64,000 nucleotides of DNA. It comes from Scyliorhinus canicula (Eukaryota). The position numbers were made by a program, and so were the translations under genes. This document shows positions 16,742 through 64,000 of the stretch, one piece after another. Each line of letters opens with the position of its first letter. Position 1 is the stretch's first letter. The notes under the pieces were generated by a model. That model was not told the DNA's origin. It saw nothing but the letters and a program-made list of their open reading frames with translations, and did no database searches. The stretch spans positions 584,657 through 648,656 of the forward strand of contig NW_024056025.1 in assembly GCF_902713615.1 (NCBI RefSeq), read 5' to 3'.

Positions 16742-16925
16742 CTGGGGCTGGTTTAGCACACTGGGCTAAATCGCTGGCTTTTAAAGCCAGGCCAGCAGCA
16801 TGGTTCGATTCCCGTACCAGCCTCCCGGGACAGGCGCCGGAATGTGGCGACTAGGGGCTTTTCACAGTAACTTCATTGAAGCCTACTCATGACAATAGGC
16901 GATTTTAATTTTCATTTCATTTCAT
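16742..16925 (+). mobile_element. Second short tRNA-like SINE family
   Basis: ggggctggtttagcacactgggctaaatcgctggc...ggttcgattcccgtaccagcctccc...; other copies at about 2670-2850, 18860-19035 (minus) and twice in 21345-21670. Confidence 0.8.
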
Positions 16926-16939
16926 CAACTTCAAAATGT

Positions 16940-19949: not shown

Positions 19950-20594
19950 TCATTTAGCAATGTGTACACGTTGATGTGCAGCGAGGGTGCTTAACCGAGT
20001 CAATCCCTTCCCACACACAGAGCAGGTGAATGGCCTCTCCCCCGTGTGAACCCGCTGGTGCCTCAGCAGGGTGGATGACTGAATGAATCTCCTCCCGCAC
20101 ACTGAACAGGTGAATGGCCTTTTCCCAGTGTGAGTCTGCTGGTGCCTCATCAGGGTGGATGACTGAGTGAATCCTTTCCCACACATGGAGCAGGTGAACG
20201 GCCTCTCTCCAGTGTGAGTGTGTTGGTGTTGCATCAGGTTCTTTCTGCTTTTAAAGCTCTTCCCACAGTCAGAACATTCTAAAGGTCTCTTATTGGAGTG
20301 AGCACATTGGTGTGACTGTAGGTGTTGTGACTGAATGAAATCTTTTCCACACACGGAGCAGATGAACGGCCTCTCCCCTGTGTGACTGCGTCGATGAGTT
20401 TTGAGATGGGATGGGTAATTGAATCCTTTCCCACAGTCCCCACATTTCCACGGTTTCTCCATGGTACCGGTGTCCTTGTGTCTCTCCAGGTTGGAAGATA
20501 AGTTGAAGTCTTGTCCACACATAGAACACCTGAATGATTTCTCCTCGCTGTGAATGGTGTGATTTTTGTTCACGCTGGTTAAAGCTCTTTCCAC
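19950..20594 (-). CDS. C2H2 zinc-finger protein (6 intact fingers), no KRAB
   Basis: 214-aa ORF; the likely true start is the internal ATG of MEKPWKC. A degenerate out-of-frame finger follows at about 19800-19930. Confidence 0.85.
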   Translation of the reverse strand: MERALTSVNKNHTIHSEEKSFRCSMCGQDFNLSSNLERHKDTGTMEKPWKCGDCGKGFNYPSHLKTHRRSHTGERPFICSVCGKDFIQSQHLQSHQCAHSNKRPLECSDCGKSFKSRKNLMQHQHTHTGERPFTCSMCGKGFTQSSTLMRHQQTHTGKRPFTCSVCGRRFIQSSTLLRHQRVHTGERPFTCSVCGKGLTRLSTLAAHQRVHIAK

Positions 20595-23330: not shown

Positions 23331-24095
23331 TTCATTCCCTACCTCTCCCACCTCTCCTCTCTTTCGCTCTCTCTTCCATTCTCCCTCCTCCTATAGAAGT
23401 CTGAATCTTGTGTTGGCCCAGACCAGTTGGCAGGATTCCTTCCCTGAAGGACATTCCTGAACCAGTTGGGTTTTCATGACAATCCAGCAGTTTTCATGGT
23501 CACTTTTTCCGAGTGCTGGCCCCACAAATGACCAAATTCATTCAGCTCAATTTCATTCTCACACTTTTCTGTTTGCTGTCAATTTTACAGGAGGTTGAAC
23601 ATTGGAAAACTGAAACTCAACATCACATCAGAATCTTACATAGTCGCCCAATTCACCATCATCCAAATGCTGACGGATTTTGAACATGGACGGGAAACAA
23701 CACCGTTCACAGTGGAAACTGTGCTCAGGTTCTGTGTGGCTGAGATTTCAGCCGATCAGCTGTCCTGTTGAGCCAAACGCAGTTACAGCAGAGAGAGAAC
23801 GTAGAAACGTGCGGACTGTGGGAAGGGATACAATTACCCATTGAAGTGGAAATTCACAGTGACACACACAGGGAGAGATCGCTCACTTGCTCTGAGTGTG
23901 GGAAGACATTCACTACCTCATCCCACCTATTGACCCCAATGAGTCCACACTGGGAAGAGACCGTTCAGCTGCTCCGAGTGTGGGAAGGGATTAGCTCACT
24001 CAGCCAACCCGCTGAGACACCAGCGAGTTCACACCCACGAGATACCTTTTAAATACCCAGACTGCGGGAAGCACTGTCGAGGTTCTGGGGAACTG

Positions 24096-25412
24096 ATGTC
24101 CCATCAACGTGTTCACACTGACATGACTCCGTTCAAGTGCTCTGGCTGTGGGACTGGGTTCAGACGATCATCTGATCTGACTGTACATCATTGCAGTCAC
24201 GCCAGAGAGAGGCCGTTCACCTGCTCTGAGTGTGGGAAAGGATTTATTACCTCATCCTACCTGCTGACACACCAGTATATTCACAGTGGGGAGAGGCCAT
24301 TCACCTGCTCTGAATGTGGGAAGGGATTCACTCAGTCATCCCACCTGCAGACACACCAGCGAGTTCACACTGGAGAGAGACCATTCATCTGCTCCAAATG
24401 TGGGAAAAGATTCACTCAGTCATCCAACTTGCTGACACACCAACGCATTCATACTGGAGATAAACCATTCATCTGCTCCAAGTGTGGAAAGGGATTCATT
24501 TGTACAGCCTACTTACTGAGACACCAGCGGGTTCATACTGGGGAGCGACCATTCACCTGCTCCAGGTGTGGAAAGGGATTCAGTCACTCACACAACCTCC
24601 AGAGACACCAGTACATTCACACTGAGGAGAGGCCGTTCACCTGCTCAGACTGTGGGAAGAGATTCACTCAGAGATATAGTCTTCTGGAACACCAGCGAAT
24701 TCACACTGGGGAGAGGCTGTTCCCCTGCAGTGAGTGTGGGAAGGGATTCAGTGCCTCATCACAACTGCAGACCCACCAGCGCACTCACACTGGGGAGAGA
24801 CCGTTCAGCTGCTCCTGGTGTGGGAAGAGATTCACTTGTTCATCCCATCTGCAGACCCACCAGCGAGTTCACACCGGGGAGAGGCCATTCATCTGCTCTG
24901 AGTGTGGGAAGGAATTTGCTCATTCATCCAACCTGCTGAGACACCAGCGAGTTCACAGTGAGGACAGACCTTTTAAATGTCCAGACTGTGGGAAGTGCTA
25001 TAAAAGTTCTGAGGAACTGATGTCCCATCAACGTGTTCACACTGATGAGAGACCGTTCAGGTGCTCTGACTGTGGAACTGGGTTCAGGCGATCATCTGAC
25101 CTCACTGTACATCAGCGTATTCACACGGGGAAGAGGCCATTCACCTGCTCTGTGTGTGGCAAAGGATTCACTACCTCATCCTACCTGCTGACACACCAGC
25201 GACTTCACACTGGGGAAAGGCCGTTCAGCTGCCCCTTGTGTGGGAAGCGTTTCACTCAGTCATCCCACCTGCTCACACACCAGCGAGTTCACACTGGAGA
25301 GAGACCATTTACCTGCTCTCAGTGTGGGAAAGGATTCACTCAGTCATCCAACTTGCTGACACACCAGCGCACTCACACCTGGGAGGAGCTGTCTGATGCC
25401 ATATGTGAGTAA
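24096..25412 (+). CDS. C2H2 zinc-finger protein (15 fingers), no KRAB
   Basis: 438-aa ORF of tandem fingers; decayed fingers on both sides (about 23770-24095 and 25430-25750). Confidence 0.9.
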
Positions 25413-26258
25413 AGAGTCTATCAGACATACGCCCTTCTGAGATATCAGTGAGTTCATACTGGGGAAAAGATGTATGTGTGTAGGGATTCAGTCAGTTACA
25501 CAGTCTCCTGTTGGACAGTCTTTCACTTGCCCCGTGTGTGGAAATGTTTCAACTGACCTGATGAATCACCAAATTGTTCACACTGGGGGAAAGGCTGGGC
25601 AGTGATCTGACGTGAGATTGATTCATTAATCATCTAATCTGTGGACACACCAGCAAGTTCCCACTGGGCTGAGACTGTTCACCTGCTCCATGTGTGGGAA
25701 GGGATTCACTCAGTCATTTAAACTTCTGACTGCTCAGTGAGTTCACACTGCACAGAGGGTGTTTGTGTGTGTGTGTGTAAAAGGATTTGATCATCATCAC
25801 AACTGTAAATTTGTCAATTACAAAGTGGAGAGAGGATATTCACCTGCTTCCTGTCTGCAAACACATTTCCTGAAAATGGATATCGTTTTGATCAGAGATC
25901 CTGGAATTCATTTCAAATTGTTGCAGATTTGCTGTCTTAATGGCTAAATATACTTTTTTGTTTTTACACAATGATTTATTGCTTTAAACAAGCAACAATG
26001 AGACATTGGTTCAATGTTTTTATTTCTATCACATAAACCATTCCAGACAGGAACCATGAGATTACTGGATACTGATAGGAGGTCTCATCAGAAAGATCTG
26101 GGAGCACGTTATTCTAATCTGATCAATCTGCTCAAAGGTAGACCTGGTCAGGAACACCGAGATTTTATATTGGTCCTTTCTGACTTCAGTCATGTTGTGT
26201 TTTTTTTTAATAAACATTTTATTGAGGTATTTTTGGTATTATAACAACAAAATAAACA

Positions 26259-28674: not shown

Positions 28675-29819
28675 AACAACAAAATAAACAATGTACATGA
28701 AACTATAAACATAGTGCAAAAGCCGCCTCCCTCTCTTACAGGTCCCAGCTTTAGTAATGTTGTATTAACCTGACGATAACATCTCAATAAATTCTGGTTA
28801 CTTGTTTATTAAAACATAACATATTAACCCATTAATTCAGCTGATAAATGATATCATGCTCTTTAGTAGTCTTGTGTGATATTGTCATTACTTTTTTCAT
28901 GGTTTGTACCTGAATATCTCATCTCTTTCTGAAGGATGTAATAATGTCTTTGTATTCAGTCCATCTCCTGACCCTCTGTCTCAGTGTCGACAACTTACAT
29001 TCATAGAATCATAGAATCCCGACAGTGCTGAAGCAGGCCATTCGGCCCATTGTCTGTCCTTTCAGATCATTTATCTCTTCATGTCTAATCTTATCCTCAG
29101 TGTGACCTCTGAGAACCTGTTTCTATTGTAGGTCCTTAGTTTTAATGTGTGCAAGTGTCATTACTGTTGAAAAATGTTTATTAAAGTTATTCAGATCTTC
29201 TTGCGTTGCCTCCCTCTGTCTACATTCCCCACCTCGAGGCTCAATAAGGTGCTTCCTTTTGTAGCTTTAGAGTTTTCTCTTGCTCAGTACAAACATTTCT
29301 ATTATATTCTTTCCCTTTGTAACCTGTTTACTTGAATTTTTACTTGTAATTGAGTGCGGCACGGTAGCACAGTGGTTAGCACTGTTGCTTCACAGCACCA
29401 GGGACCCGGGTTTGATTCCCGCTTGGGTCACTGTCCGTGCGAGTTTGCACGTTTTCCACGTGTTTGTGTGGGTCCCTGCGGGTGCTCCGGTTTCCTCCCA
29501 CATGTCCCGAAAGACGTGCTGTTGGGTGAATTGGACATTCTGAATTCTCCCTCTGTGTACCTGAACAGGTGCTGGAGTGCAGCGACTGGGAGATTTTCAC
29601 AGTAACCTCATTGCAGTGTTAATGTAAGCCATCTTGTGACACTAATAGATTATTATAATTTCCGTAACGTTGTGGTCTTTCCAGACACTGGTACTTTAAC
29701 CCCAGGATTGGTCAGGTTGGATGGGACTGTCCACCTTATGGGACAGGAGGTATTCCTGTGTTAGTGTGTGTGACTGTCGCTCTCTGTGTTTCAGAATGTG
29801 GTTGTGTATTCAAAGGTTG

Positions 29820-30715
29820 TGTCTCTGCAGACTGTGTGTGTCTGCAGGCTGTGTGTGACTGCAGACTGTGTGTGTCTGCAGGCTGTGTGTGTCTGCAGGC
29901 TGTGTGTGTCTGCAGCCTGGGTGGGTCTGCAGGCTGTGTGTGTCTGCAGGCTGTGTGTGTCTGCAGGCTGTGTGTGTCTGCAGGCTGTGTGTGTGTCTGC
30001 AGGCTGTGTGTGTCTGCAGGCTGTGTGTGACTGCAGGCTGTGTGTGTCTGCAGGCTGTGTGTGCCTGCAGACTGTGTCTGACTGCAGGCTGTGTGTGTCT
30101 GCAGGCTGTGTGTGTCTGCAGGCTGTGTGGGTCTGCAGGCTGTGTGGGTCTGCAGGCTGTGTGGGTCTGCAGGCTGTGTGTGTGTCTGCAGGCTGTGTGT
30201 GTCTGCAGGCTGTGTGTGACTGCAGACTGTGTGTGTCTGCAGGCTGTGTGTGTCTGCAGGCTGTGTGGGTCTGCAGGCTGTGTGTGCCTGCAGGCTGTGT
30301 GTGCCTGCAGGCTGTGTGTGCCTGCAGGCTGTGTGGGTCTGCAGGCTGTGTGTGTCTGCAGGCTGTGTGTGTCTGTAGGCTGTGTGTGTGTCTGCAGGCT
30401 GTGTGGGTCTGCAGGCTGTGTGTGTCTGCAGGCTGTGTGGGTCTGCAGGCTGTGTGTGTCTGCAGGCTGTGTGTGTGTCTGCAGGCTGTGTGTGCCTGCA
30501 GGCTGTGTGGGTCTGCAGCCTGTGTGGGTCTGCAGGCTGTGTGGGTCTGCAGGCTGTGTGTGTCTGCAGCCTGTGTGGGTCTGCAGGCTGTGTGTGCCTG
30601 CAGCCTGTGTGTGACTGCAGGCTGTGTGTGTCTACAGGCTGTGTGTGTCTGCAGCCTGTGTGGGTCTGCAGGCTGTGTGTGTGTCTGCAGACTGTGTGTG
30701 ACTGCAGACTATCTG
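29820..30715. repeat. About 17-bp TG-rich minisatellite
   Basis: Unit ctgcaggctgtgtgtgt with length variants. Confidence 0.95.
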
Positions 30716-35087: not shown

Positions 35088-36215
35088 TTACTTGTGGCCA
35101 CATTGGTGTCTCAGTAGGTGGGATGAAGTGGTGAATCCCTTCCCACACTCGGAGCAGGGGAATGGCCTCTCCCCAGTGTGAATTCGCTGATGTACAGTGA
35201 GTTGAGATGATCGCACAAACCCAGTCCCACAGTGAGAGCACCTGAATGGTCTCTCCTCAGTGTGAACACGTTGGTGACGGGTCAGTTCCCCAGAACTTTT
35301 AAAGCATTTTCCACAGTCTGGACATTTGAAAGGTCTCTTGTCAGTGTGAACTCGCTGGTGTGCAGCGAGTTGAGATGTTCGCCTGAACCCAGTCCCACAG
35401 TGAGAGCACCTGAACGATCTCTCGTCAGTGTGAACACGTTGATGGAGCATCAGTTTCTCAGAACTTTTGTAGCCTTTCTCACAGTCTGGACATTTAAAAG
35501 TTTTCTTGTTTGTGTGAACTCGCTGGTGTGCCAGCAAGATGGATGATGTAGTAAATCCCTTCCCACATTTGGAGCAGGTAAATGCCCTCTCCCCAGTGTG
35601 AATTCGCTGGTGCTTCTGCAGATCGGATGACTGAGTGAATCCCTTCCCACACTTGGCGCAGGCAAATGGTCTCTCCCCAGTGTGAATTCGCTGATGTACA
35701 GTGAGGTCAGAGGATCGCCTGAACCCAGTTCCACAGCGAGAGCACCTGAACGGTCTCTCGTCAGTGTGAACACGTTGATGGCGCATCAGTTCCCCAGAAC
35801 TTTTATAGCACTTCCCGCAGTCTGGACATTGAAACGGTCTCTCATCAGTGTGAACTCGCTGGTGACTCAGCAAGTGGGCTGAAATAGTAAATCCCTTCCC
35901 ACACTCTGAGCAGGTGAATGGTCTCTCCCTGGAGTGAACTCGCTGGTGTGTGGACAGTGAGGATGACTGAGTGAATCCCTTCCCACATTTGGAGCAGGTG
36001 AACGGTCTCTCCCCAGTGTGACTGCGTCGATGAGTTTCCAGCTTGGATGGGGAAGTGAATCCTTTGCCGCAGTCCGCACATTTCCACGGTTTCTCCTCAG
36101 TGTGACTGCATTTGTGGCTTGTGAGGCTTGATGGTTGTGTGAATCCTCGTCCACACACACAACACGTGTATGGTTTCTCCCCACTGTGAACAATGCTTTT
36201 TGCTTCCATGTTCAA
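35088..36215 (-). CDS. C2H2 zinc-finger protein (13 fingers), no KRAB
   Basis: 375-aa [21 protein letters not shown]... with TGERPF/TDERPF linkers. Confidence 0.9.
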
Positions 36216-36902
36216 AATCCCATGATATTCAGGATATGATAAATTAAGTACTCTGTCAGATCCTGATGTGATGCTTGGTTTGAGTTTCTGGACTTTGAAG
36301 CTTCCCTTCGCACACCCTGTGAAACTGATTTAAAACAGAAAATAAGGAGTGAGAGAGAACCCACAAAAACAGGTTGCAAAATTGAGCTGAATGAATCTGG
36401 TCATTTGTGGAGCCGAAACAAGGGATAAGGGCCATGAAAACTGCTGGATTGTCATAAAAACCCAACTGGCCTCTTTGGGAGGAGAAAGGGGTAAAGAGGG
36501 ATTTTGTATATCTACAAGACATATTACGAGAGTAGTTGGCAAAGCAAATGCGATCTTGAGCTTCATAAACAGTAATATTGAGACTGAAACTATGCTTCTG
36601 GTGGCACAGTGGTTAGCACTGCTGCCTCACAGCGCCAGGGACCGGGTTCAATTCCGGCCTTGGTGACTGTCTGTGTGGAGTTTGCACTTTCTCCCTGTGT
36701 CTGCGTGGGTTTCCACCCGGTGCTCAGATTTCCTCCAACAGTCCAAGAACAAGTTAAGTGAATTGGCCTTTATAAATTGTCTCTTAATTGGGAAAAGAAA
36801 AGAATTGGCAACTCTGTATTTAAAGGGAAAAAAATGGAAAATAAAATAGGTAATCAAAATTTTTTTTTTGAAAATTAGATGAGCCATAATCTCATTGAAT
36901 AG

Positions 36903-37790
36903 TGGAGCAGGCCTGAGGGGCTGAGTGGCCGACTCCTAGTTTATCTGTAAGGAGCAGGCTCGAGGGGCCGACTCCTAGTTTGTGTGTAAGGAGCAGGCTC
37001 GAGGGGCCGACTCCTAGTTTGTATGTAAGGAGCAGGCTTGAGGGGCCGACTCCTAGTTTGTGTGTAAGGGGCAGGCTCGAGGGAACGACTCCTAGTTTGT
37101 GTGTAAGGAGGAGGCTCGAGGGGTTGGCTCCTAGTTTGTGTGTAAGGAGCAGGCTCGAGGGACCGACTCCTAGTTTGTGTGTAAGGAGCAGGCTTGAGGG
37201 GCCGACTCCTAGTTTGTGTGTAAGGAGCAGGCTTGAGGGGCCGACTCCCAGTTTGTGTGTAAGGAGCAGGCTCGAGGGGCCGACTCCTAGTTTGTGAGTA
37301 AGGAGCAGGCTTGAGGGACCGACTCCTAGTTTGTGTGTAAGGAGCAGGCTCGAGGGGCCTACTCCTAGTTTGTATGTAAGGAGCAGGCTCGAGGGGCCGA
37401 CTCCTAGTTTGTGTGTAAGGAGCAGGCTTGAGGGGCCGACTCTTAGTTTGTATGTAAGGAGCAGGCTCGAGGGGCCGACTCTTAGTTTGTATGTAAGGAG
37501 CAGGCTCGAGGGACCGACTCCTAGTTTGTGTGTAAGGAGCAGGCTTGAGGGGCCGACTCTTAGTTTGTATGTAAGGAGCAGGCTCGAGGGGCCGACTCCT
37601 AGTTCGTATGAAAGGAGCAGGGTCGAGGGACCGACTCCTAGTTTGTGTGTAAGGAGCAGGCTCGAGGGGCCGACTCCTAGTTTGTGTGTAAGGAGCAGGC
37701 TCGAGGGACCGACTCCTAGTTTGTATGAAAGGAGCAGGCTCGAGGGGCCGACTCCTAGTTTGTATGAAAGGAGCAGGCTCGAGGGGCTGA
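36903..37790. repeat. 39-bp minisatellite (about 22 units)
   Basis: Unit gtaaggagcaggctcgaggggccgactcctagtttgtgt. Confidence 0.95.
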
Positions 37791-40349
37791 CTATTTTTTT
37801 CAGTGTCGGAAAAATCGCTTTTATTGTCCCTATCATTTTCCAGAGACGCAAAAATCTTTTTTACTGTCCTAATGATTTTCCAGACAGCCAGGTATGAATC
37901 TCACAAAGGCAGAAGGTAACATTTGAATTAATTGAAAGTTTACTGATGACCATGAAACCATTGTCAATTGTTGCAAAGACCCATCTGGTTCACTCCTGTC
38001 CTTCAGTGAAGGAAATCTTCTATCCTTACCTGGTCTGGCCTACATGTGACTCCAGATCCACAGTCAGCTTTATCATAGAATTTACAGTGCAGAAGGAGGC
38101 CATTTGGCCCATCGACTCTACACCGGCTCTTGGAAAGAGCACCCTATCCAAGGTCAACACCTCCCCCTATCCCAATAATCCAGTAACCCCACCCACACTA
38201 AAGGCAATTTTGAACACTAAGGGCAATTTATCACGGCCAATCCACCTAACCTGCACATCTTTGGACTGTGGGAGGAAACCGGAGCACACACGGGGAGGAT
38301 GTGCAGACTCCGCACAGTGACCCAAGATGGAATCGAACCTGGGACCCTGGAGCTGTGAAGCCATTGTGCTATCCACAATGCTACCGTGTTGCCCAAGGGT
38401 TGACCCGTAAAATGCTCTCGGAGATGCACTCAGTTGAAGGGCAATTAGGGCTGGGCAGTGAATGCTGGCCCAGCCAGCGACACCCACATCCCGTGAATGA
38501 ATAGTGAAGAAAATCTGCCATCCTTACCTGGTCTGGCCGACACGATTCCAAACCACAGCAATGTGGTTGACTCTTTAAATGCCCTCCGAGATGGCCGAGC
38601 CCGCCACTCAGTTTGAGGGAAATTAGAGATGGGCAATAAATGTTGGCCCAGCCAGTGACTCCCACAAATGAATAAAAGAAAATCCTGGAGACTCCAGCCA
38701 GTCAATCCGGGAGAGTTGGTATCCGGTCCAGGCTCGCAGTGCATGCTCCCTGCGGCACCTTGTCCTCTGTAAAGATGGCGGCCGGTAACCCAGGCCTGTC
38801 ACCGCTCAGCTCTCACTCTGTTCGGTGCTGCTTAAGACGGGACCGTTAACATTTTCCTCGGGAGTTGAAGCCTCCACAGGGTATTTATGAAGCCTCCCGG
38901 CTCATTCCGCAGCTTCGATTACTCCCGGCCACCCACCAGCTCCAATCCTGAAAGTCGCTCAATTGCTTCTTTCCCGCTCCTCGCACCGTCAGCGACAACC
39001 TGAACTGCATATGCGCCGGTCACAGCCGGACTCTGCGCATGTGTGAGCAACTTCTGTAATGTGGATGGAGCACATTCACAGCCGCAACGCACGATGGGTA
39101 ATAACCCTGTCACTGAAATCGATATTCCTGATCGAAATTATGCTTTGTGATCCGATTCCGATTGGTACCATTGTGCCAATGTAACAAATGTATTAAATAA
39201 ATTAATAAGGAACTTAAATAGTCTGGGCCCTCCACCACAGTTCTGTCCTGGGTGTGATTGACAACAGACCACACACGGACAGTGAGTTGTTAACGGGTTG
39301 GGGTCTGAGCAGGTTCAGGTGAACAGTGATTTTTGTCTTCTTGGACAAAAGTTAAACTACCCCTCGCCAATAACAATGTGCTGAAATTGGATCAAATGGT
39401 TTGTGCTTTTAAATTTGGAGTGTTGACCAGTGGAAAACTGAGGAAATACCTTTGCACATGTGAAGTGTGTGAGTGATCTCCCTCTAAACTGCTCCTGAAC
39501 TGCACATTAGATTAATTAATGACTATTTATTCTTATCCAGTGAAAACATCTTCCACTTGTCTATCATATCAAACCTTTTCATAATCTTACATGATCAGGT
39601 CATCCTTCATTCCCTTTTCCAGAGAAAGGTTTACACCCTGCCAAATCTTTCTTGCTGGGTCTAACCTGCTAATTCAGACATAATTCAAATATATTTTCCT
39701 GCATCTTCTCCGGTACTTCTAGATCCATTTTACAATATGGAGACTTTAACTAATCTGAACAGTAAACTCACCGTTGTCCCCAAATGCCTGTATGTTGCAG
39801 TATTTTAGTCATTTTTCTGTTCGCTGAATGTAAGATGGGACAGAATAAGATCCAACGAGCCAGTCTGTAACACTGCAGAACATCTACAAACCTGCCTCTT
39901 CCCCCTTACTGCTAACAGTTGACTTTTTCACTCTTAACCTGTCAGCTCTGTCATTGAGACTAATGTGTCAGAGAAAGACTGGATTTCAGCTTGGTGACAC
40001 CAGGCCAGACTAAATTTTAGTTCAGAGGATTGTTGAGCTAATTTCTCCATATCATAAGATGCCACTGACGGTTCCTGAACTGTCAAACCAACGGAAGGAA
40101 TTTATATTTACCCCCTGTTCATCTGAAAAGTGTTGATTCTGCTGTTACTGTCACTGTTAATCACACCCAGAACTGAACCATCTTCATTCTGACAATTGGG
40201 GGTTATTTCGATTCCCTGTAACTGAGCTCGGCTAGTGTTTAATATCTTGTTGATTGTGAAATAAATCAGCTTTGTCTCAAACACACTATGTCAAGTCCTT
40301 GATTTCTCTAGCGGGAAAGGAAATTAATTGATGCCACGTGTCACCAGGC

Positions 40350-40876: not shown

Positions 40877-41126
40877 ACTGGTAGCGTGGCACGTTGGTTA
40901 GCACTGCTGTCTCACAGTGCCAGGGACTCAGGTTCAATTTCGACCTTGGGTGGCTGTCGTGGACCTTCTCCCCATGTCTGCGTGGGTTTCCGCCGAGTGC
41001 TCCGGTTTCCTTCCACAGTCAGGGTATTGAATCGACGATCAGCCATGATGATAATGAATGGCGGAGCTGGCGTGAAGGACCAAATGGCCTCCTCCTACTC
41101 TATTTTCTATGTAAGTCACATGTCGG

Positions 41127-42112
41127 TGTAGCCACCTAAAATGGACACTGGGCTAACAAGATGGAGAATTGCTAAGACTGCAGGGAAAGAAAGCAGTTTA
41201 GCCAAGACAGCAGTCTGCAAAGACTAATTAGCATTTTGCAAGCAGCAAAACTAGTTTCTGGCCAGGTGGAAGATCTCAAACCAAAGGTGTTAATGGCAAA
41301 ACGCTTTGCATACTAATGAGGCAATCCAGATCTAGGCACACACAATGGCAACATCTAGGTTTGAATAGATACTTTAAGTGGATGTCCAGACAGAGCGGCG
41401 CCAGAAGTATCTATCTCAAAAGACCATAGAGACCGCCCCCTCCATCGAGGAGAGACCCTCATTGGGGGGTTCGAAAGATATCGATTGGGAGTTGATCCAA
41501 TCGATACCTGAAGGTAAAGCCCGCCCCGAAAAGGCACGGACATTGGGGACCCCTATAAAAGATAGACCCCCACACATGGTCCGTTCTGTTTACTTGCTCC
41601 GGCTCTACTGTTGCTCTGGCTTTGACCTCGACCCAGAACTTCAACTTGTATCCTGACTCCAGCCGTTGAGCACCAGCCGCCGAACCGTAAGTGACCATAC
41701 GACGCTCGCTACGCGAACCAGGCCCACTAGACCCCCAGCGACCAGCACGCTCTCTGAAGGTTGCAGACCAAGATCGGAACGAAGGCCTCGCTCCCTGACC
41801 TTGCCTGTTCCTGTTTAGTTAAGTATTCTGATCGCTTAGTTTAGTTATAGCTTAGTCCCTTAGCGTGTGCATGCGTATTTATTATATTTGTATAATAAAT
41901 ATTGATCGTTTGGAACTTACTAATCGGTGTATCGTTTTATTACTTTGAACCTGACCTTGGAATATTTGTGAGGTGTCTATACGGCATCTGGCGACTCCTG
42001 AGCTGAAAATACACATATAGAGCCTAGCAGTGTTAAGCACACGGCCTTTAAACGGAGGCGTGTTAATACACTCCAATAAACGCGTATTACACCCATAGTA
42101 AAACGTGCAACA
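41127..42112 (+). repeat. 5' LTR (986 bp)
   Basis: TG...CA termini; TATAAAA 41554-41560; GTAAGT donor-like site 41687-41692; AATAAA at 41894-41899 and 42075-42080; direct repeat of 48791-49776. Confidence 0.97.
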
Positions 42113-42117
42113 TTTAG

Positions 42118-42135
42118 TGGCGACTCCACCGGGAC
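42118..42135 (+). promoter_or_regulatory. Primer-binding site, tRNA-Arg(UCU)
   Basis: TGGCGACTCCACCGGGAC, 5 nt after the LTR end. It is 17/18 complementary to the 3' end of vertebrate tRNA-Arg-TCT (...GTCCCGGCGGAGTCG-CCA), recalled from memory. Confidence 0.8.
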
Positions 42136-42426
42136 ACGGTTATAAGTGGTACCCCCACTCCGTCGAGGACCCTGAAATTTGAATTAGAAATCTGGTAAAG
42201 AAAAAGGAAAGAAATCACAAATATTCAAGGTGTTCAAAGGAATAAACGTAATTCGGAAGTGTGTTTAGTGCATGCGTACTAACAGGGTTGTAAGGAAAAC
42301 CTGAAAGCATTTTTGTTGCGCCAAACTTTTGGTAGTTTTGTGAACGGAACATAGCGTAAGCCTTACCCGTTTCGTGAGACATAACCTCAACACCCCCTGT
42401 TCCAAAATTTAAAGTGAGTCAGAAAA

Positions 42427-42965
42427 ATGGCCATGCAGGCAATGGAACGCCTCATGAACCCAGAACGGTTTGTGGTTGCAGCGACCAGCAGTAGCCGAGT
42501 AGGTCAGTGTCCCATGTGGGAGCTGGAACTCCGCAAGTATCTGCAAGGAAAGGGATGGCCCCTTTGGAAAGAGTTTTGTTTGAATGAGGAGACAGGTCCC
42601 GGAAGTATAGGACATACTTGGTGGGAGAACCTCTCTCAAATTCACAAGAAAAATATGAGTAAAACACGTAAGCCGATGGCGATTGTGTCCTGTTTGGCAC
42701 AATGCGAGGCACAGAGGAGGTCGTTCAGACGCTCCGGGCAGAATTAGAAGAAAGAAATAGAATGAGTAAAGTGGATGTCAGGGACATCGAAAAGGAAAAC
42801 ATGGATCTTAGAGGGAAGTTGGCAGAGAAAGGTAGAGAGGTGGATGATGCACCCCAGAGATCACAGAGAGGCCAGCAGACAGGCACTCTGAATCGCAATA
42901 TAACAAAACCGATCCATAGTATAGGGATCCAGTCAGGACAGACCAATGTGGACGGAACGAACTGA
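42427..42965 (+). pseudogene. gag: gag remnant (about 180 codons, one frameshift near 42702, apparently lacking capsid)
   Basis: ORF MAMQAMERLMNPERF... at the gag position shifts frame into a coiled-coil-like segment (RGTEEVVQTLRAELEERNR...) and ends at TGA 42963-42965. It is far too short for a full Gag. Identity rests mainly on position. Confidence 0.65.
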
Positions 42966-44708
42966 CGGTGTTCGGGCTCCCCCACTTGGGTCTGTGACAC
43001 ACTATGGGATCCATCCGGAAGACCGGTAGTCACGGCAAAGTTAAGAGGGAAGCCCATAGAGTTACTTTGGGACACAGGAGGGTCCCACACCACGATTAAT
43101 TCCACCATCACGGCACAGGCAGACACGTGGCCGACCACCTCCACCATCACACTTAGCGGTTTCACAGGACACTCGCAGCAGGGACACATTACAGCACCCG
43201 TAGCAATCCAGCTAGGGAACATTTCCACCAAACACCCCGTCGTTCTAGTAAATCTTCCCCGGACAGCAGAACACATCCTAGGGATAGATTTCATGAATGC
43301 CCATAGCCTGTCGTTCGACCCAGTGAACCAATGTGTCTGGCGAATGGCAAGATCGGACAGAGCACCCGCTACTCTCACAGTAGGAGAGTACGCTAATAGG
43401 ATTAGTGCAGTAGGAGACTATTCATTTGACCCGACTACACTAAACACGGACAGACAAGTTAAGGCAGTACTAAACAAACATAGGACAGCATTTGCCAGTC
43501 ACCGGCACGACTGTGGCAGAATGACTGGACAAATTCACGTTACCGGACCTGACCCCAGACCACAGAAACAGTACAGATTTCCCCTAGAAGCAGAGGGAGA
43601 AATAGAGAAAGTGATAGGTAGCTTATTGGAGCAAGGTGTGCTTAGAACAGTAGCCTCGACCAATAATGCCCCTATTTGGCCAGTGAGAAAGCCCGACGGA
43701 TCATGGCGTCTGACCATTGATTATCGGGAACTCAATAAAGTAACCCCAGCAGTAGCCCCCACGGTAGCAACAAGTCCCGAGACCATGCTCAAGCAGGGAC
43801 TCAACTCCAAATATTTCACGGTTTTGGACATTAGCAATGGCTTCTGGTCAATCCCATTGGCAAAGGCGTGCCAGTACAAATTTGCCTTCACTTTTAAAAC
43901 ACAACAGTATACGTGGACATGCCTTCCACAAGGATTCCACAATTCCCCCTCCATTTTCCACCGACAGTTGGCGAATGGTCTAGAAAAATTTTCCCGCCCC
44001 GAATGTCTGGTACAGTATGTAGACGACCTACTACTGCAGACAGACACAAAGGCAGAGCACATTACGCTTCTGGCCGAGCTCCTGGAACTTTTAACCTCAA
44101 TTGGCTGTAAAGTTAACCCAAGAAAGGCCCAGATTTTGGAAAATAAAGTGATGTATTTGGGTACAATCATCACGCACGGCAAACGCGAGATCGAATTCAA
44201 AAGAATTGATTCGATTGTCAAATTGCCCCTTCCCCAGAATGTTTCAGCCCTCCGGTCGTTCTTAGGACTGGTTGGTTATTGTCGGAACCACATCGACGGA
44301 TTCGCGACAAAGGCAGCCCCACTCTCAGACCTCCTTAAGAAAGGAGCCCCCTGGGAATGGCTTCCGCAGCATACAGAGGCTGTGGAAGAGTTAAAGAAAG
44401 CCCTTAGCGCAGCACCCGCGCTACAAGTCCCAGACCAACTTTCCCCATATGCAATAGAGGTAGCGAGCACAGATCTGACCCTCTCGGCCGTGTTACTTCA
44501 GGAACGGCACGAGCAGCTAAGACCAGTGGCTTATGCCTCCCGACTGTTAGACCCAGTTGAACAAGGATTTTCAGCCTGCGAGGGGCACCTCCTTGCAGTC
44601 TTCTGGGCAGTACACTACTTTTCTTACATTACCGGACTCAACCCCACCACCATTTTGACCGAGCACACAGTTACTCCTAGACGGTCGACTGAAGGACGGT
44701 TCAGTTAG
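42966..44708 (+). pseudogene. pol: pol part 1: aspartic protease, reverse transcriptase and tether (degenerate RNase H)
   Basis: Open frame from 42966: protease LWDTGG (GAC at 43071) and ILGIDF. RT motifs PRPQKQY, WPVRKPDGSWRLTIDYRELN, LDISNGFWS, LPQGFHNSP and YVDD. Tether region ...RPVAYASRLL. Frame lost near 44668. Confidence 0.93.
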
Positions 44709-47193
44709 CCAGATTAGGGCAGCTAGGTGGACACTACTCTTACAAGGACGGGACATTACAGTAAAACGGACCCGCACACACACATTTTTAGCCGACAACC
44801 TCCAATACCCAGGACAGCCCCATGAATGTGAAATTGTAGCCCCCTTACATAACACAGGACCCTTTATAGCGAAGACACCCCCCAGGAAGATAGGGAACCC
44901 CAGACAAAGCCCCCAACACACAGACACGTGTGGACCACTACGGATATACGTAGACGGTTCATCCACGGTTTTAGAAGGTGAGCGTATCACAGGATGCGGC
45001 ATCTATGTCGAGGACGCGCAGGGGCGCGCTCTCGAAGAGATAGCTTTAAAATTACCAGGACACTTAGGCGCGCAGGCAGCAGAGCTCACGGCCGTAGCTT
45101 ATATAGTGGACCACCCTAATTCTTTCCCCAGCCCAGCGGACATATATTCGGACAGTCTATATGTCTGCAATAGTTTAACAGATTTTCTACCCCTGTGGAG
45201 GACACGGGGTTTTGTCTCCGCAGATGGGAAACCCCTTCCATCAGCCCCTTTACTCCAACACATTTTAGAGAAAGCGAAGGACAGGACCTTCGGCATTATC
45301 AAAGTAAGAAGCCACCATAGGTCATCCCCCCCATGGAATGTAAAAGCCGACGCACTGGCTAAGGCAGGTTCCAGGCGAGGACACTTGTGGACACCCCCAG
45401 CTAGCGCACCAGCTAGCGCCCCTGTGAGCGCGGTTCAAGTCTCACAGACCGATATTAAAGATCTAGTAGAGGCACAGAGGCAGGATGAGGATCTCAGGGA
45501 GATTTTCAAAGGCAACTTTGTGCCACAGTATGACAAGTTCAGACACGCACTGACCACACATGAGGGTGTGATCATAAAGGATCAGCTTTATGTCGTCCCG
45601 CAGCAGGACAGGAATGAAATGATTGCTTTGTTCCATGATGGACACGGGCATCAAGGGATCGACGCAACCACGAGGCACCTCAGGCAGCTCTGTTGGTGGC
45701 TTAACCTAAGGACAGATGTAAGTCACTACATCGAGAATTGCCTTATTTGCGCCCAGAATAACCCGGAGAGGTATTCTAAAAAGGCACAACTTCGGCATAC
45801 TCGACCAGTTAATGGCCCCTGGACAAACCTCCAGATCGACTTTATAGGACCATTGCCCCCTTGTAGGAATGGCTATAAATACGTTCTGGTGGTCATCGAT
45901 ACTTTTACCAAATGGGTAGAGGCATTCCCCTCTAGAACGAATACAGCTAAGACAGCTGCAAAGATCCTGACCCACCACATCTTCACGAGATGGGGTTTAC
46001 CCCGAAGCATTGATTCGGACCAGGGATCTCACTTCACAGGACGGGTCATGAAGAACGTCCTGACAATATTTGGCATAAAACAAAATTTTCATATTGCGTA
46101 TCACCCACAGTCCAGCGGGATTGTAGAGCGCATGAATCGGACCCTAAAATCCACACTTCGAAAGATGGTTCAAGGGAACAACTCCACATGGGATTCAGTG
46201 CTCCCATTTGTACTCATGTTCATCAGAAATACAGTTTCAACTTCCACAGGATACACACCACACACACTCATGACCGGACGCCCTATGAAAGGTACAGAAT
46301 TCCTTTTAGGACTGGACATGACTAGCCCCGAAGTGACGGCCCTCACACACGAAAAGACGGTTAAAGACCTGGTTGAGACTGTGAGGTCTGCACAGATCGC
46401 AGCCGCAGTTCAGCTAGAGAAACGCCGTAGACAAAGCACAGCATGCTTTAACAAGACCGTACACCCCACAGAATTCCAGGTTGGGCAACAGATAATGCTA
46501 TCTGTATACAACCCCAGCAGTTTTTTGGCACCAAAATATTCCGGCCCATACTCAATTTCGGATAAAATTAGCCCCTCAGTTTATAGGATAAAATATCCTA
46601 ATGGTAAGACCGCGTGGTTCCATATCAACCAGTTAAAGGCATATGGAACACAGGCCAACCATGCACACCATGTCCTGCTAGACGCAGCAGAACACCTCAC
46701 TCCACCCACTAGAGACACGTTTCCACCATCCCCCTCACAGACCAGTTCTTCATCGGACTCGCCCACGACTCCGCCCACTGACCATGACAGACCACGCCCC
46801 GAAACGCCCACAAGCTGCCGCAGCAGAGACAGCGATACAGACACTGACTCTGAGGACAGCCACAGCACACCACACTACAGCCCACATTGCAGCGACAATG
46901 ACCCCGACTACAGTGACCCCATGGAAGTCACTTACATTAAAAACCCAGACCCACCACCCGACCCCGACTACCCCGACAATACCCATTCACTTTTGGACCC
47001 AACACTCTGGCACAGGGACAATTCGTACCGACTTGTCCGCAATGACGAACGTGACCCCCAGTCACACAATTCAAAGATATCATGCCTGATCCACACAAGG
47101 GTGTGGGATCCGGGAGAGCAGGACGACACGGTGTCTGAATCCCGATACGGCAACCCCTTTGTGACCCTGTTCACAGAGACAGAGGAAAAGTGA
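44668..47193 (+). pseudogene. pol: pol part 2: RNase H, integrase (HHCC and DDE) and a long P/S/T/D-rich C-terminal extension
   Basis: One open frame from CAG 44668 through IYVDGSS...AQAAELTAV, IYSDS and HRSSPPWNVKADALAK (RNase H). Then HDGHGH...CLIC, IDFIGPLP, DSDQGSHF and YHPQSSGIVERMN (integrase). Stop at 47191-47193. Confidence 0.93.
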
Positions 47194-48076
47194 GGTGTCC
47201 AGATGATGTAAAATAGGAATCGTTTGAGGGAAACGATGTCCTTTCTGATGGAACCTGCACGTATGTTTTTGTTGTCAGTTTATGTTTGTTTTTCTTGTTA
47301 ATATGTTAAGGGATTGATTGCAGATCTTTTCGGCTGAAAAGATTGTGACCACCTCGCACGCACGTTAGCTTGTCCGCAGATACCTCTGAGAACTTCAGTT
47401 GTATCCTCTGGTGAACCGACACGGTTCACGACTTGTTCCCTGTTTTCAGATGAAGGAGCATCTTGGCTCCTCCATTGTTTTAGGTGCCCCTCTATTCGGC
47501 GAATAGAGGCTGCAAACCCACGGTAAACACATTCTTGCCCGTTTAATCCAGGTTACTCAGGCAGTGGACAAACGGCACTGAGGACCCGCCCTGTCTGAGA
47601 ACCCACTTTGGTCAGCCAAGCTCGGGTATGGCACAGCACGCCCTACCCGGGGATCCCATTCAAATCGTACCCGTAGCGGCCCATACGCAACCCATTCGAC
47701 CTTTTGTTTCCAATTTGTTTTCATTTTTCGTTAGGCAGCCCTTAGGCCGCCATCCCACATGCTATTTACATCCAGGAACATTCGGATGGTAAATGAGCAA
47801 AGCCTGCGAGACGGCTCGCAGGAGAAAAAGTTAGGTGTATTGTGTTCATTAAATTCGCTTTTGGAAAAAAAAAATGAGGGGAGTCACAGGGTGTGACTTG
47901 GCCAGTCATTTTAATGGGTCAATTGGAATTAAAGGACAGATACACTAACAAGTACGGATATTAAACTGTGTATTGACAGATACTGTGCTTGATCCCATAG
48001 CTTTCGAAGGACGAAAAAGGGATCACAGCAAGGATCAGCCATACAAGAGGAAGAGAAAGAGAACAAAAAGAAGACC

Positions 48077-48421
48077 ATGATGGAAGCCTGCTTATTGCTC
48101 TTAAATGTTGTATTTGTTTATGTGGGAGCAAGACACGTTTCCCCCACAACCCCCGCCGTAAATGTTTCACTCACCGCAACTCCCCCGTGCTCAGCTCTGA
48201 TCAGTGAGGTTCAGACCTGGTGCACAAAATTTATGACATGGTACTCCATGTCATATGTGATTGAATCACTGCTAGTGATTGCAATCCTCTGCATACTCGT
48301 ACAGACCCTCAGGTTGAGGAAGTGGAAGAGGAGAGCCTCCCGTTCCTGCCCCTCAACCGTCTATGGAGTTCGATCCCCTATTTTTCGGTTTCATCAATCC
48401 CCTTTGCCCCATGATGAATAA
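48077..48421 (+). CDS. Small (114 aa) predicted type I membrane protein in the env position of the LTR element
   Basis: accATG context. Hydrophobic N-terminus (MMEACLLLLNVVFVYVGA), ectodomain of about 41 aa with an NVS sequon and C-x10-C, TM segment YVIESLLVIAILCILVQTL, then basic RLRKWKRR and a short tail. Confidence 0.65.
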   Translation: MMEACLLLLNVVFVYVGARHVSPTTPAVNVSLTATPPCSALISEVQTWCTKFMTWYSMSYVIESLLVIAILCILVQTLRLRKWKRRASRSCPSTVYGVRSPIFRFHQSPLPHDE

Positions 48422-48779
48422 AGCACTGTGAATAAAAATAAAATATACCCATGTATTATATTGTCCTGAACTCGACTGCCGAGTCAGGAAATGTTATGTG
48501 ATGTGGTATGAATGGATGAGGTTTAGTCTGTAATGAAATGTTTAAGGTAAGATAAGGATAGTTGTGATAGGTAGAGGTTCCCGGTTTTTGGTAATGCATG
48601 TCCCCTTTGACATAGCGCCAAGTAGAGATGTCAGGTAAAAAAAAATTTCTTCCCATAGTTAAGGACAGAGTAGACGCTCAGGAGCTTGCCGAGGTCAGGG
48701 AACACAAACAAGGCACCCAGAAGCACTCGAAGCAACGTGCATAGGTGATCCTTCACAATGTTTTTGATTGTGAGGATCA

Positions 48780-48790
48780 CAAGGAGGGAA
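48780..48790 (+). promoter_or_regulatory. Polypurine tract
   Basis: CAAGGAGGGAA directly abutting the 3' LTR TG. Confidence 0.8.
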
Positions 48791-49776
48791 TGTAGCCACC
48801 TAAAATGGACACTGGGCTAACAAGATGGAGAATTGCTAAGACTGCAGGGAAAGAAAGCAGTTTAGCCAAGACAGCAGTCTGCAAAGACTAATTAGCATTT
48901 TGCAAGCAGCAAAACTAGTTTCTGGCCAGGTGGAAGATCTCAAACCAAAGGTGTTAATGGCAAAACGCTTTGCATACTAATGAGGCAATCCAGATCTAGG
49001 CACACACAATGGCAACATCTAGGTTTGAATAGATACTTTAAGTGGATGTCCAGACAGAGCGGCGCCAGAAGTATCTATCTCAAAAGACCATAGAGACCGC
49101 CCCCTCCATCGAGGAGAGACCCTCATTGGGGGGTTCGAAAGATATCGATTGGGAGTTGATCCAATCGATACCTGAAGGTAAAGCCCGCCCCGAAAAGGCA
49201 CGGACATTGGGGACCCCTATAAAAGATAGACCCCCACACATGGTCCGTTCTGTTTACTTGCTCCGGCTCTACTGTTGCTCTGGCTTTGACCTCGACCCAG
49301 AACTTCAACTTGTATCCTGACTCCAGCCGTTGAGCACCAGCCGCCGAACCGTAAGTGACCATACGACGCTCGCTACGCGAACCAGGCCCACTAGACCCCC
49401 AGCGACCAGCACGCTCTCTGAAGGTTGCAGACCAAGATTGGAACGAAGGCCTCGCTCCCTGACCTTGCCTGTTCCTGTTTAGTTAAGTATTCTGATCGCT
49501 TAGTTTAGTTATAGCTTAGTCCCTTAGCGTGTGCATGCGTATTTATTATATTTGTATAATAAATATTGATCGTTTGGAACTTACTAATCGGTGTATCGTT
49601 TTATTACTTTGAACCTGACCTTGGAATATTTGTGAGGTGTCTATACGGCATCTGGCGACTCCTGAGCTGAAAATACACATATAGAGCCTAGCAGTGTTAA
49701 GCACACGGCCTTTAAACGGAGGCGTGTTAATACACTCCAATAAACGCGTATTACACCCATAGTAAAACGTGCAACA
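48791..49776 (+). repeat. 3' LTR (986 bp)
   Basis: Copy of the 5' LTR at offset 7664. The only difference I found by eye is C41775 versus T49439. The ORF track gives identical peptides in both LTRs. Confidence 0.97.
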
Positions 49777-49780
49777 TCGG

Positions 49781-61129: not shown

Positions 61130-61641
61130 CTGGGAGAGAATGACCCATTCAACAAGTTAGACTCTGGGATTGTATTTATTCAGTAACCAAACATTTCAAA
61201 ATTTGACGAGAACTATGTGTTTATTCCAACATTTTCCTAACAAATGCTACATCCACATTTCAACTTCTATTAGTTCTATCATTTGAGAACCAACACCTGT
61301 TTACCCCTCATTAGAAACTCACATCTTTCTCCGTCTCTATCACAAAAAAACAACATTTTGATGTAATCTGAATGATGTAATTTGCATTGGATTGAAAGCG
61401 AAAGCGAAGAGCGGATGATTTTCCCCATTATGTCAGCCATTACGTAAAACAAAATGTAATGTCCCATAGACCCGGAGTCTGCTCTCTCCTTTTGAGAGCT
61501 GACTGGTGGTGATTTAACCTGAGGGTCACCGCACCTCAGGCCAGGGCAAAGGTTGAGAATGGGGGTCTTTATGAATAACCTCAGCCGGTACAGCAATTGA
61601 ACCCACGCTGCTGGGATTGATCTTCATCACGAACCAGCCGC

Positions 61642-62261
61642 CCAGCTGACTGAGCCGTGTACGTCACAATCCAGCTCACTGAGCTGTGTACGTCACAATC
61701 CAGCAAACTGAGCTGTGTACGTCACAATCCAGCAAACTGAGCTGTGTACGTCACAATCCAGCTAACTGAGCTGTGTACGTCACAATCCAGCTAACTGAGC
61801 TGTGTACGTCAAAGTCCAGCTATATGAGCTGTGTACGTCACAATCCAGCTGACTGAGTTGTGTACGTCACAATCCAGCTGACTGAGCTGTGTACGTCACA
61901 ATCCAGTTGACTGCGCTGTGTACGTCACAATCCAGCTAACTGAGCTGTGTACGTCACAATCCAGCAAACTGAGCTGTGTACGTCACAATCCAGCTAACTG
62001 AGCTGTGTACGTCACAATCCAGCTAACTGAGCTGTGTACGTCAAAGTCCAGCTAGATGAGCTGTGTACGTCACAGTCCAGCTGACTGAGCTGTGAACGTC
62101 ACAATCCAGCTGACTGAGTTGTGAACGTCACAATCCAGTTGACTGAGTTGTGTACGTCACAATCCAGCTGACTGAGCTGTGTACGTCACAATCCAGTTGA
62201 CTGCGCTGTGTACGTCACAATCCAGCTAACTGAGCTGTGTACGTCACAATCCAGCTAACTG
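61642..62261. repeat. 29-bp AGCT-rich minisatellite (about 21 units) 5' of CH1
   Basis: Unit ctgagctgtgtacgtcacaatccagctaa. Confidence 0.95.
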
Positions 62262-62989
62262 AATGCACATTTATATAATTACAATAAAACTACATTTGAG
62301 TAATTGCAACAGTCTCTAATTTTAGGACCCTGCACATTAACAGCAGGAGGCGGCCATTCGGTCTGTCGAGTCTCCTCCCCATTCAATAAGCTCCTGCCTG
62401 TGTTGATTGTGCAGTTAATTTCACATTCCGCCTGTCACTGACACCGGGCTGTCTGCAATCCCCCCGCACCCCGCCCCGCGCTCCCTGTGCCGTTCCCGCT
62501 GGATTTCTGTACCTTTCTCCTGGTCCCTTCACTTTCTTTTAGCTCTCTGCTCTTTTTCACGGCTCTCTGCGCTTTCCTCCGCATCTCTGCACTTTCTCTC
62601 GACTCTGCATTGTCTTCCTGCTCTTTGTGTTTTGCCCATGTGTGCTGCACTTTTCCCAGTTCATTGTGCTTTTCCCGGTTCCTGGCATTTTGTGCGGGCT
62701 TTCTGAGCTTTTCACCAGCACGGTTCGCTTTACCCCGATTCTTATCGCTTATGACCCACTCCATGGATTTCCCTCCGGCTCTCTGCTACTCCACCGGCTC
62801 TCTGCGCCTTCCCCCGGTTCTCTGCTCCTTCCCCCGGCTGTCTGCACTTTCCTCCGGCTCCCGGCAATCCCGTGTCATGCAGCCACAATCGGGCGCCACT
62901 CGTCATCAGCTTCGTTCCAGTTCTCCATTCCTCCCCCGTTGCAGACGCTCCCGTGCCCATTTCCTGAGCATCAGTGAGAGAGGATGTGT

Positions 62990-64000
62990 GAGTAAGTGAG
63001 GAGGGTAGGAGTGTGAGTGTGGGTGAGTGAGTGAGTGAGGGTAGGAGAGTGCGGGTGAGTGAGTGAGGGTAGGAGAGTGAGTGTGGGTGAGTGAGTAACT
63101 GAGTGAGGGTAGGAGAGTGAGTGCAGTTGAGTGAGTAACTGAGTGAGGATAGGAGAGTGAGTGAGTAACTGAGTGAGGTTGGGAGAGTGAGTGCGGTTGA
63201 GTGAGTAACTGAGTGAGGATAGGAGAGTGAGTGAGTAACTGAGTGAGGGTGGGAGAGTGAGTGCGCGTGAGTGAGTAACTGAGTGAAGATAGGAGAGTGA
63301 GTGCGGGTGAGTGAGTAACTGAGTGAGGGTAGGAGAGTGAGCGTGGGTGAGTGGGTAACTGAGTGAGGGTAGGAGAGTGAAGGTGGGTGAGTGAGTAACT
63401 GTGTGAGGATAGGAGAGTGAATGCGGGTGAGTGAGTAACTGAGTGAGGGTAGGAGAGTGAGTGTGGGTGAGTGGGTAACTGAGTGAGGGTAGGAGAGTGA
63501 GTGTGGGTGAGTGAGTAACTGAGTGAGGGTAGGGGAGTGACTGTGGGTGAGTGGGTAACTGAGTGAAGGTAGGAGAGTGAGTGCGGCTGAGTGAGTAACA
63601 GAGTGAGGATAGGAGAGTGAGTGTGGGTGAGTGGGTAACTGAGTGAGGGTAGGAGAGTGAGTGTGGGTGAGTGGGTAACTGAGTGAGGGTAGGAGAGTGA
63701 GTGCAGGTGCGTGAGTAACTGAGTGAAGATAGGAGAGTGAGTGCGGGTGAGTGAGTAACTGAGTGAGGGTAGAAGAGTGAGTGTGGGTGAGTGGGTAACT
63801 GAGTGAGGGTAGGAGAATGAGTGCGGGTGAGTGAGTAACTGAATGAAGGTAGGAGAGTGAGTGTGGGTGAGTGAGTAACTGAGTGAGGGTAGGAGAGTGA
63901 GTGCGGGTGAGTGAGTAACTGAGTGAGGGTAGGAGAGTGAGTGCGGTTGAGTGAGTAACTTAGTGAGGGTAGGAGAATGAGTGCTGGTGAGTGAGTACCT
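62990..64000. repeat. 40-bp GA/GT-rich minisatellite running off the window end
   Basis: Unit gtgagtgagtaactgagtgagggtaggagagtgagtgcgg. Confidence 0.95.

Follow-up and report, generated by a model that had tools for sequence, protein, structure and literature searches.

Organization of the element

The window, a 64-kb stretch of Scyliorhinus canicula genomic DNA, harbors a retroviral element at 41127-49776. Its parts are listed below in order of position.

41123-41126 and 49777-49780: target-site duplication TCGG, 4 bp
41127-42112, + strand: 5′ LTR, 986 bp, TG...CA, from comparison of the LTR pair
41554: TATA box within the 5′ LTR
41684-41692, + strand: predicted splice donor (GT at 41687), about 130 nt past the TATA box and 5′ of the primer binding site
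42118-42135, + strand: primer binding site (PBS) complementary to tRNA-Arg(TCT), with one mismatch in the studied copy
42427-42965, + strand: gag, broken in the studied copy
42966-47193, + strand: pol, with protease, RT, tether, RNase H, integrase with an SH3-type end, and an acidic tail
47547-47824, + strand: conserved non-coding block with predicted hairpins, between pol and the small ORF
47972-48000, + strand: predicted branch point and splice acceptor (AG at 47999-48000)
48077-48421, + strand: small ORF, 114 aa, studied by translation, alignment, AlphaFold and selection per region
48778-48790, + strand: polypurine tract (PPT)
48791-49776, + strand: 3′ LTR

The two LTRs of this copy differ at one position, and the PBS matches the 3′ end of a tRNA-Arg(TCT) gene from the same genome. 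The gag frame is broken near 42700 and lacks about 1.2 kb at 42850 in comparison with sister copies, and the pol frame is broken near 44680; with the loss in gag and these frame breaks, the studied copy is defective. In sister copies, Gag is about 581 aa long with a coiled coil and one CCHC knuckle, and Gly2, the glycine for myristoylation, is absent from the copies read. At the end of gag (42960-42970), a TGA followed by CGG is in frame with pol in the sister copies, and the UGA at this junction is likely to be read through. On pol, Pfam identifies the RT, the integrase, and two domains of RNase H type, one of them tether-like and the other a true RNase H. The integrase is followed at the pol C-terminus (46681-47193) by a low-complexity acidic tail of 170 aa, whose last 95 codons evolve under selection (dN/dS 0.21-0.40) and which ends with an NPF-containing motif.

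The non-coding block at 47547-47824 is more conserved between subfamilies than the DNA of the small ORF. Covariation in its hairpins is weak (two-sided change in 3 of 42 pairs; z -1.95), and an Rfam search with the block gave no real match; it could be an element for RNA export or packaging. Around the insertion, the window contains arrays with an 84-nt period resembling C2H2 zinc-finger genes (5494-6546, 13581-14216, 19924-20460, 23869-25730, and 35124-36195), tandem repeats at 16852-17573, 29678-30500, 36806-37924, 61526-62405, and 62997-63950 with periods of 30, 17, 39, 29, and 40 nt, respectively, and many dispersed SINE-like copies.

Relatives of the element and the env survey

Among solved structures, the best relatives of the RT are the foamy-virus and MLV enzymes, far above Ty3, and the best relatives in databases are pols from ERVs of frog, turtle, coelacanth, and carp. 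A quick RT tree of 95 rows, from which SnRV is absent, groups the element with these frog, coelacanth, turtle, and carp pols (SH-aLRT 90, not starred); the gamma/epsilon group and a group of fish elements with motifs matching Loki-Str stand separately. A coiled-coil, non-myristoylated Gag with a zinc knuckle and the combination of tether and RNase H are common to SnRV and the shark element, and the primer of SnRV is reportedly tRNA-Arg, as in the shark element. An alignment by eye with the SnRV RT given in a published supplement found 77 identities in the first 119 aligned residues (about 65%; PMC9040795), and SnRV Gag is described as having a coiled coil and a zinc finger and as presumably non-myristylated (PMC2717909). 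The carp pol in the tree matches si_gr_ERV3, listed as a member of clade Huo (PMC6001957). Furthermore, Gag and protease of the whale-shark Rh_ty_ERV2, the closest relative in the literature, which stands beside SnRV in clade Huo according to the figure text (Xu et al. 2018, PMC6001957), are clearly alike by eye. By this sequence likeness of RT, Gag, and protease, together with the tRNA-Arg primer site, the element is an ERV of the SnRV clade (clade Huo). Besides a full env, SnRV carries several accessory ORFs (52, 94, 76, and 205 aa) that are expressed from spliced mRNAs, whereas in the shark element env is missing and a single small membrane ORF is present.

Lokiretroviruses and Odin retrotransposons (PMC7947760, PMC9040795) also have dual RNase H, and Odin is likewise env-less, but they differ from the shark element in RT grouping, primer, and host range. 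An identity with either was rejected, because the RT motifs and the tree side with SnRV-like pols; the F-like env of lokiretroviruses is also absent. A catshark consensus, “ERV-Spuma.0-Sca,” is listed with no Env detected (PMC10699275); it could represent this family or another one. A search of viral contigs with the RT gave no match, and 18 loci found by an integrase search of metagenomes (26-38% identity over long stretches) were rejected as relatives.

In the S. canicula genome, exact PPT-LTR junctions number 1,991; an ORF search of the genome returned 7,077 first-look candidates, a figure that is not a copy number. Six subfamilies were told apart by eye (A, that of the studied copy, to F), the genome having at least six, and the identity of the ORF protein to that of the studied copy ranges from 41 to 89% across them. 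LTR pairs are 98-100% identical in 28 of the 39 copies picked by pol, indicating recent insertion, and 88-98% identical in the older subfamilies.

A survey for env covered 59 full-length loci, 53 of which were measurable (the other six failed the anchor patterns). An env-sized frame between pol and the PPT was found in 0 of the 53, and the small ORF was found in all of them, with its core 0.9-1.1 kb past the end of pol except in two copies with insertions. The longest frame from pol to the PPT is 116-193 aa, with a single exception of 303 aa in locus L188; this frame was considered as a longer ancestor of the ORF and rejected as a chance read-through of non-coding DNA. The sequence-only reading had noticed the lack of an env-sized frame between the pol stop (47193) and the end of the PPT (48790) in the studied copy and had suggested a retrovirus-related lineage without an envelope. 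The absence is indeed confirmed there, and the lineage is found to be one of the SnRV clade with env in none of the measurable copies.

Structure, selection, and expression of the small ORF

All of the parts that the same reading had seen in the 114-aa ORF are present at 48077-48421: a hydrophobic N-terminus (residues 1-19, Kyte-Doolittle 19-mer 1.66), an NVS sequon at 29-31, a cysteine pair C38-x10-C49, a single TM segment (19-mer peak 2.36 at 57-75), and the basic run RLRKWKRR at residues 79-86. The protein is divided as follows.

Residues 1-18: predicted signal peptide, on the basis of hydropathy
Linker: S/T/P-rich, bearing the predicted N-glycan site N29
W48-Y60: aromatic membrane-proximal helix
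TM segment: containing the invariant E63
Residues 79-89: basic patch
Tail: conserved Y96 and an SPIF motif

Cleavage of the predicted signal peptide would leave an ectodomain of about 41 aa. An AlphaFold model (pLDDT 66) consists of two helices, a long one at 39-90 and another at 3-19, with the remainder disordered. FAST proteins carry an amphipathic helix in their cytoplasmic tail; in the shark protein, a high helical moment is confined to the basic patch, and the tail is predicted to be disordered. In 2000 dinucleotide-matched simulations of the 1.6-kb pol-to-PPT region, no comparable ORF (at least 90 aa with a hydrophobic N-terminus, a TM, and a basic patch) arose.

The frame is well kept among sister copies. 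The small ORF is full length in 31 of the 39 copies chosen by pol DNA, only 8 of which have an unbroken pol, and it is open in 25 of 30 loci taken by the PPT in genome order. Between subfamilies, the dN/dS of the small ORF is 0.24 overall (bootstrap 0.17-0.31) in 30 open-frame copies chosen by hand, with dS of 0.8-1.5, where synonymous sites are saturated. The value is 0.13 in the core (residues 47-109; dS about 1.3-1.4), 0.43 in the signal peptide and linker, 0.23 in the juxtamembrane polybasic motif, which is present in 30/30, and 0.15 in the tail (95-109), which is as constrained as the TM; the membrane-proximal helix has a dN of 0.13 with saturated dS. When the studied copy is compared with eight other copies, dN/dS is 0.10-0.30 for the small ORF and 0.06-0.16 for RT. 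Shared variants within the young subfamily A give a higher value for the small ORF, 0.56 (16 synonymous and 23 non-synonymous), against 0.12-0.13 for pol and 0.94-0.97 for the two other frames of the ORF, and none of these variants changes an amino acid in residues 38-69. Both expectations of a functional gene, a preserved frame and a dN/dS below 1, were thus borne out, and the small ORF is a real gene kept by purifying selection. This selection is close to that on pol and extends through saturating divergence in two shark species.

Thirteen residues are invariant in the 30 aligned copies: N29, W48, F52, W55, Y56, S57, E63, L65, I70, Q76, R79, W83, and Q107. The N-x-S/T sequon is found in 29/30, C49 in 28/30, and a cysteine at the inner end of the TM in 26/30. 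The N-terminus of all 30 copies is a hydrophobic stretch, short and variable, with small residues at its end, as judged by hydropathy, and Gly2 is found in none. The C-x10-C pair is restricted to five copies, all of subfamilies A and B, and any second ectodomain cysteine is present in 12; in subfamily C, it lies 14 residues ahead of C49, while subfamilies D and E and the second catshark species have no second ectodomain cysteine; the database proteins P0108, P0109, and P0110 lack it as well. Therefore, the p10-like cystine loop that the sequence-only reading had seen in the ORF is a feature of few copies rather than of the family, and neither the older subfamilies nor the second species have it. 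Homologs are found only in two Scyliorhinus species, with four proteins among 1.8 billion representatives; NCBI proteins assigned to S. canicula are identical to the genome sequence across the ORF.

A branch point, an AG acceptor, and a purine-rich leader lie 60-110 nt 5′ of the ATG in 95 of 119 loci, by a pattern that missed subfamily B, which has AAG at this site; in the studied copy, the purine-rich leader between the acceptor AG and the ATG is 76 nt. Of 12 readable leaders, 8 have a GTAAGT donor in the LTR past the TATA box; two of the other four end short of the donor site, and two have no donor. As we infer from these signals, the mRNA of the small ORF would be spliced from the LTR donor to the acceptor at 48000 in the manner of an env mRNA. 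Neither the three raw RNA runs nor the one contig set examined listed a spliced GT-AG joint. Sense-strand reads from two stranded poly(A) RNA runs extend along the whole element and cover the small ORF. Sense depth over the small ORF versus pol is 20-27 versus about 6 in one run (X22) and 26-46 versus about 21 in the other (X24), an excess equally explained by oligo-dT 3′ bias together with cross-mapping of diverged subfamilies. The highest RNA peak is over the conserved non-coding block.

Several NCBI gene models (P0108-P0117) end in the small ORF, with galectin-like, B3GAT-like, SUGCT, CFAP36, KIAA1958, and HEPACAM2-like host parts. Eight models from the two catshark species join host exons at the acceptor (one by script, seven by eye); in P0109, the script places the departure from the genomic reading exactly at the AG at 47999-48000. 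The ERV acceptor may thus add a TM exon to host proteins.

Origin and possible roles of the small ORF

Database comparisons offer few leads on the protein. A Pfam search with the 30 copies, down to E=1, gave no FAST or Env family, with TMEM156 as the best hit, under its cut-off. A PDB sequence search returned nothing meaningful, the AlphaFold model had no match among viral folds, channel and accessory families gave neither a sequence nor a fold match, a word-indexed protein search with the single ORF gave no match, and none of 48 pattern matches of its profile in metagenome contigs was confirmed. The nearest named Atlas clusters, TMIE, influenza M2, and geminivirus movement protein, are all under 0.9 and are leads only. 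In the open-access literature searched, we found no description of this ORF, nor any report of a vertebrate ERV with a FAST-like ORF.

The sequence-only reading had likened the protein to the reovirus FAST fusogens. It indeed resembles p10, p14, p15, and NS22 in small size, one TM, and N-out/C-in topology, in the basic patch after the TM, in a conserved membrane-proximal ectodomain motif, and in a cysteine often found at the inner end of the TM; its size lies within the FAST range (about 80-200 aa with one TM and a short N-terminal ectodomain), and the juxtamembrane polybasic stretch is there. However, FAST proteins have no cleavable signal peptide, the TM serving as a reverse signal anchor, and no glycosylation (PMC3952855), while the shark protein is predicted by hydropathy to have a signal peptide and its predicted N29 site is invariant. 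Moreover, the FAST fusion peptide depends on N-myristoylation or an essential cystine loop, the loop being essential in p10 (PMC3961370); in the shark ORF, Gly2 occurs in 0/30 and C-x10-C in 5/30. Because FAST proteins lack a signal peptide and a glycan, we do not file the small ORF as FAST, and the earlier likening to FAST is not supported on these points and the missing Gly2.

The insect precedent that the same reading had mentioned proved real: sORF2 of MDG1 elements (Voichek et al., bioRxiv 10.1101/2025.03.14.642691) is likewise a short single-TM ORF in an env-less LTR element, with a short ectodomain and a juxtamembrane basic patch, and in some moths it lies downstream of pol. According to the main text, it differs from the shark ORF in its length (63-107 aa), in being mostly N-myristoylated with an ectodomain of about 30 aa, and in its location, mostly upstream of gag in insect Metaviridae; a signal peptide is not mentioned there. 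In Drosophila MDG1 elements with sORF2, the same text reports that transfer of cores between cells was shown by imaging (10.1101/2025.03.14.642691). Apart from fusogens, there are single-TM viral proteins of similar build. Influenza M2/CM2 and HIV Vpu resemble the shark protein in size, single TM, short glycosylated ectodomain with cysteine, and polar TM residue, but no significant match in sequence or structure was found.

The small ORF is predicted to encode a single-pass surface glycoprotein, and our tentative first choice for its role is a factor for transmission at cell contacts that replaces Env, working like sORF2/FAST without being a member of the FAST family. We favor it because a secretory glycoprotein is of no evident need to an intracellular retrotransposon, because the ORF takes the slot and the predicted expression mode of env, and because MDG1 offers a precedent. 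The constrained outer helix and the N29 sequon would imply a role outside the cytoplasm that plain intracellular retrotransposition does not need. Several observations speak against it: there is no FAST-type fusion-peptide candidate, the predicted signal peptide and glycan are unlike FAST, no Pfam FAST/Env family or fold matches, subfamily A has the higher dN/dS among shared variants in comparison with pol, and no spliced joint was listed in the RNA data. Very high copy number is reportedly typical of env-less ERVs that copy intracellularly, and that of this family needs no transmission factor. The invariant glutamate in the TM suits a channel or a TM-partner role equally well.

Such a role is the substance of another explanation, possible and somewhat less probable, in which the product is an accessory protein modulating the host cell, either a Vpu-like antagonist acting via the TM glutamate and the tail or an M2/CM2-like channel, while the element copies inside germ cells. 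Lack of a FAST-type fusion peptide, the TM glutamate, and the high copy number bring it close behind the contact factor. The small accessory ORFs of SnRV on spliced mRNAs, the invariant E63, one conserved ectodomain cysteine (28/30) free to link chains, the cysteine at the inner TM end (26/30), the conserved Tyr/SPIF tail, and the Atlas leads fit this explanation as well, against the lack of any match to channel or accessory families and the location of the ORF in the sole predicted spliced slot past pol of a wholly env-less lineage; a product common to all copies in a cell should also be under weakened selection. The protein might instead anchor Gag to an internal or surface membrane for particle assembly, perhaps the job of Env tails in related viruses, with no role in entry. 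This we think unlikely: it would suit a Gag without Gly2 in the copies read, as SnRV Gag is presumed non-myristylated too, and a tail as constrained as the TM, but would account neither for the invariance of the sequon nor for the conservation of the outer helix.

Slightly more improbable still is a shrunken Env, a signal peptide fused to the membrane-proximal region, TM, and tail by an internal deletion long ago, and kept for a residual role, for instance as a block to superinfection or to recruit the Env of a different ERV family. In position, in predicted splicing, and in the succession of signal peptide, aromatic helix, TM, and tail, the ORF matches the C-terminal part of Env, and Env-bearing ERV families exist in the same genome (L211-L240, with class I-type env in open frames up to about 570 aa, unrelated to the shark element in DNA). 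However, a profile built from 30 small-ORF copies matched none of 30 env loci from other ERV families in the catshark genome (best E about 1), nor the env-side segment of the Xenopus relative. In P0003, the Xenopus tropicalis gene model nearest to pol, residues 569-760 form a weakly Ig-like segment with a signal peptide, perhaps the env of that element or a captured gene. Nine longer database homologs of the ORF are all gene models or host-gene chimeras with the extra sequence joined 5′ of the ORF, none being Env, and the frame upstream of the ORF is closed, with a median of 10 stops per 300 codons in 118 loci. Had the ORF been a deletion remnant of env, the possibility raised in the sequence-only reading, env or Env likeness might have appeared in the measured copies, the class I-type envs of this genome, the Xenopus relative, or the longer database proteins; none did, and by these comparisons the small ORF does not appear to be such a remnant. 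Least of all do we believe in an accidental or decaying frame that merely travels with a young and rapidly copying family, with which the 0.56 of the youngest subfamily would agree: it is refuted by the core dN/dS of 0.13 between subfamilies at saturated synonymous sites, and the near-neutral values of the two other frames, the 0/2000 simulations, and the homologs in a second Scyliorhinus species also stand against it.

Under the contact-factor reading, the signal peptide would be cleaved and N29 glycosylated, with the basic patch setting topology and surface delivery. The aromatic membrane-proximal helix and the TM would cluster the protein at cell contacts, where the conserved cytoplasmic tail would gather cores of non-myristoylated Gag or the cytoskeleton. 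The cores would then cross into the neighboring cell, from soma to germ cell, comparable to Drosophila MDG1 with sORF2.

The infectivity of retroviruses is ascribed to Env, and ERVs without env are assumed to copy only within the cell. Possibly, though we hold it doubtful, this is a vertebrate retrovirus lineage that lost Env long ago and spreads from soma to germline by means of a novel, very small glycoprotein for contact or fusion. Next to reovirus FAST and insect sORF2, this would be the third such solution to arise independently, and the first among Retroviridae. If cores are carried between cells in this way, envelope-free transmission would extend beyond insect retrotransposons and non-enveloped viruses, and a shark for which many RNA data sets exist would offer a new minimal protein of fusion or contact to work on. 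Should the product be an accessory protein instead, it would still represent an undescribed family of retroviral membrane proteins.
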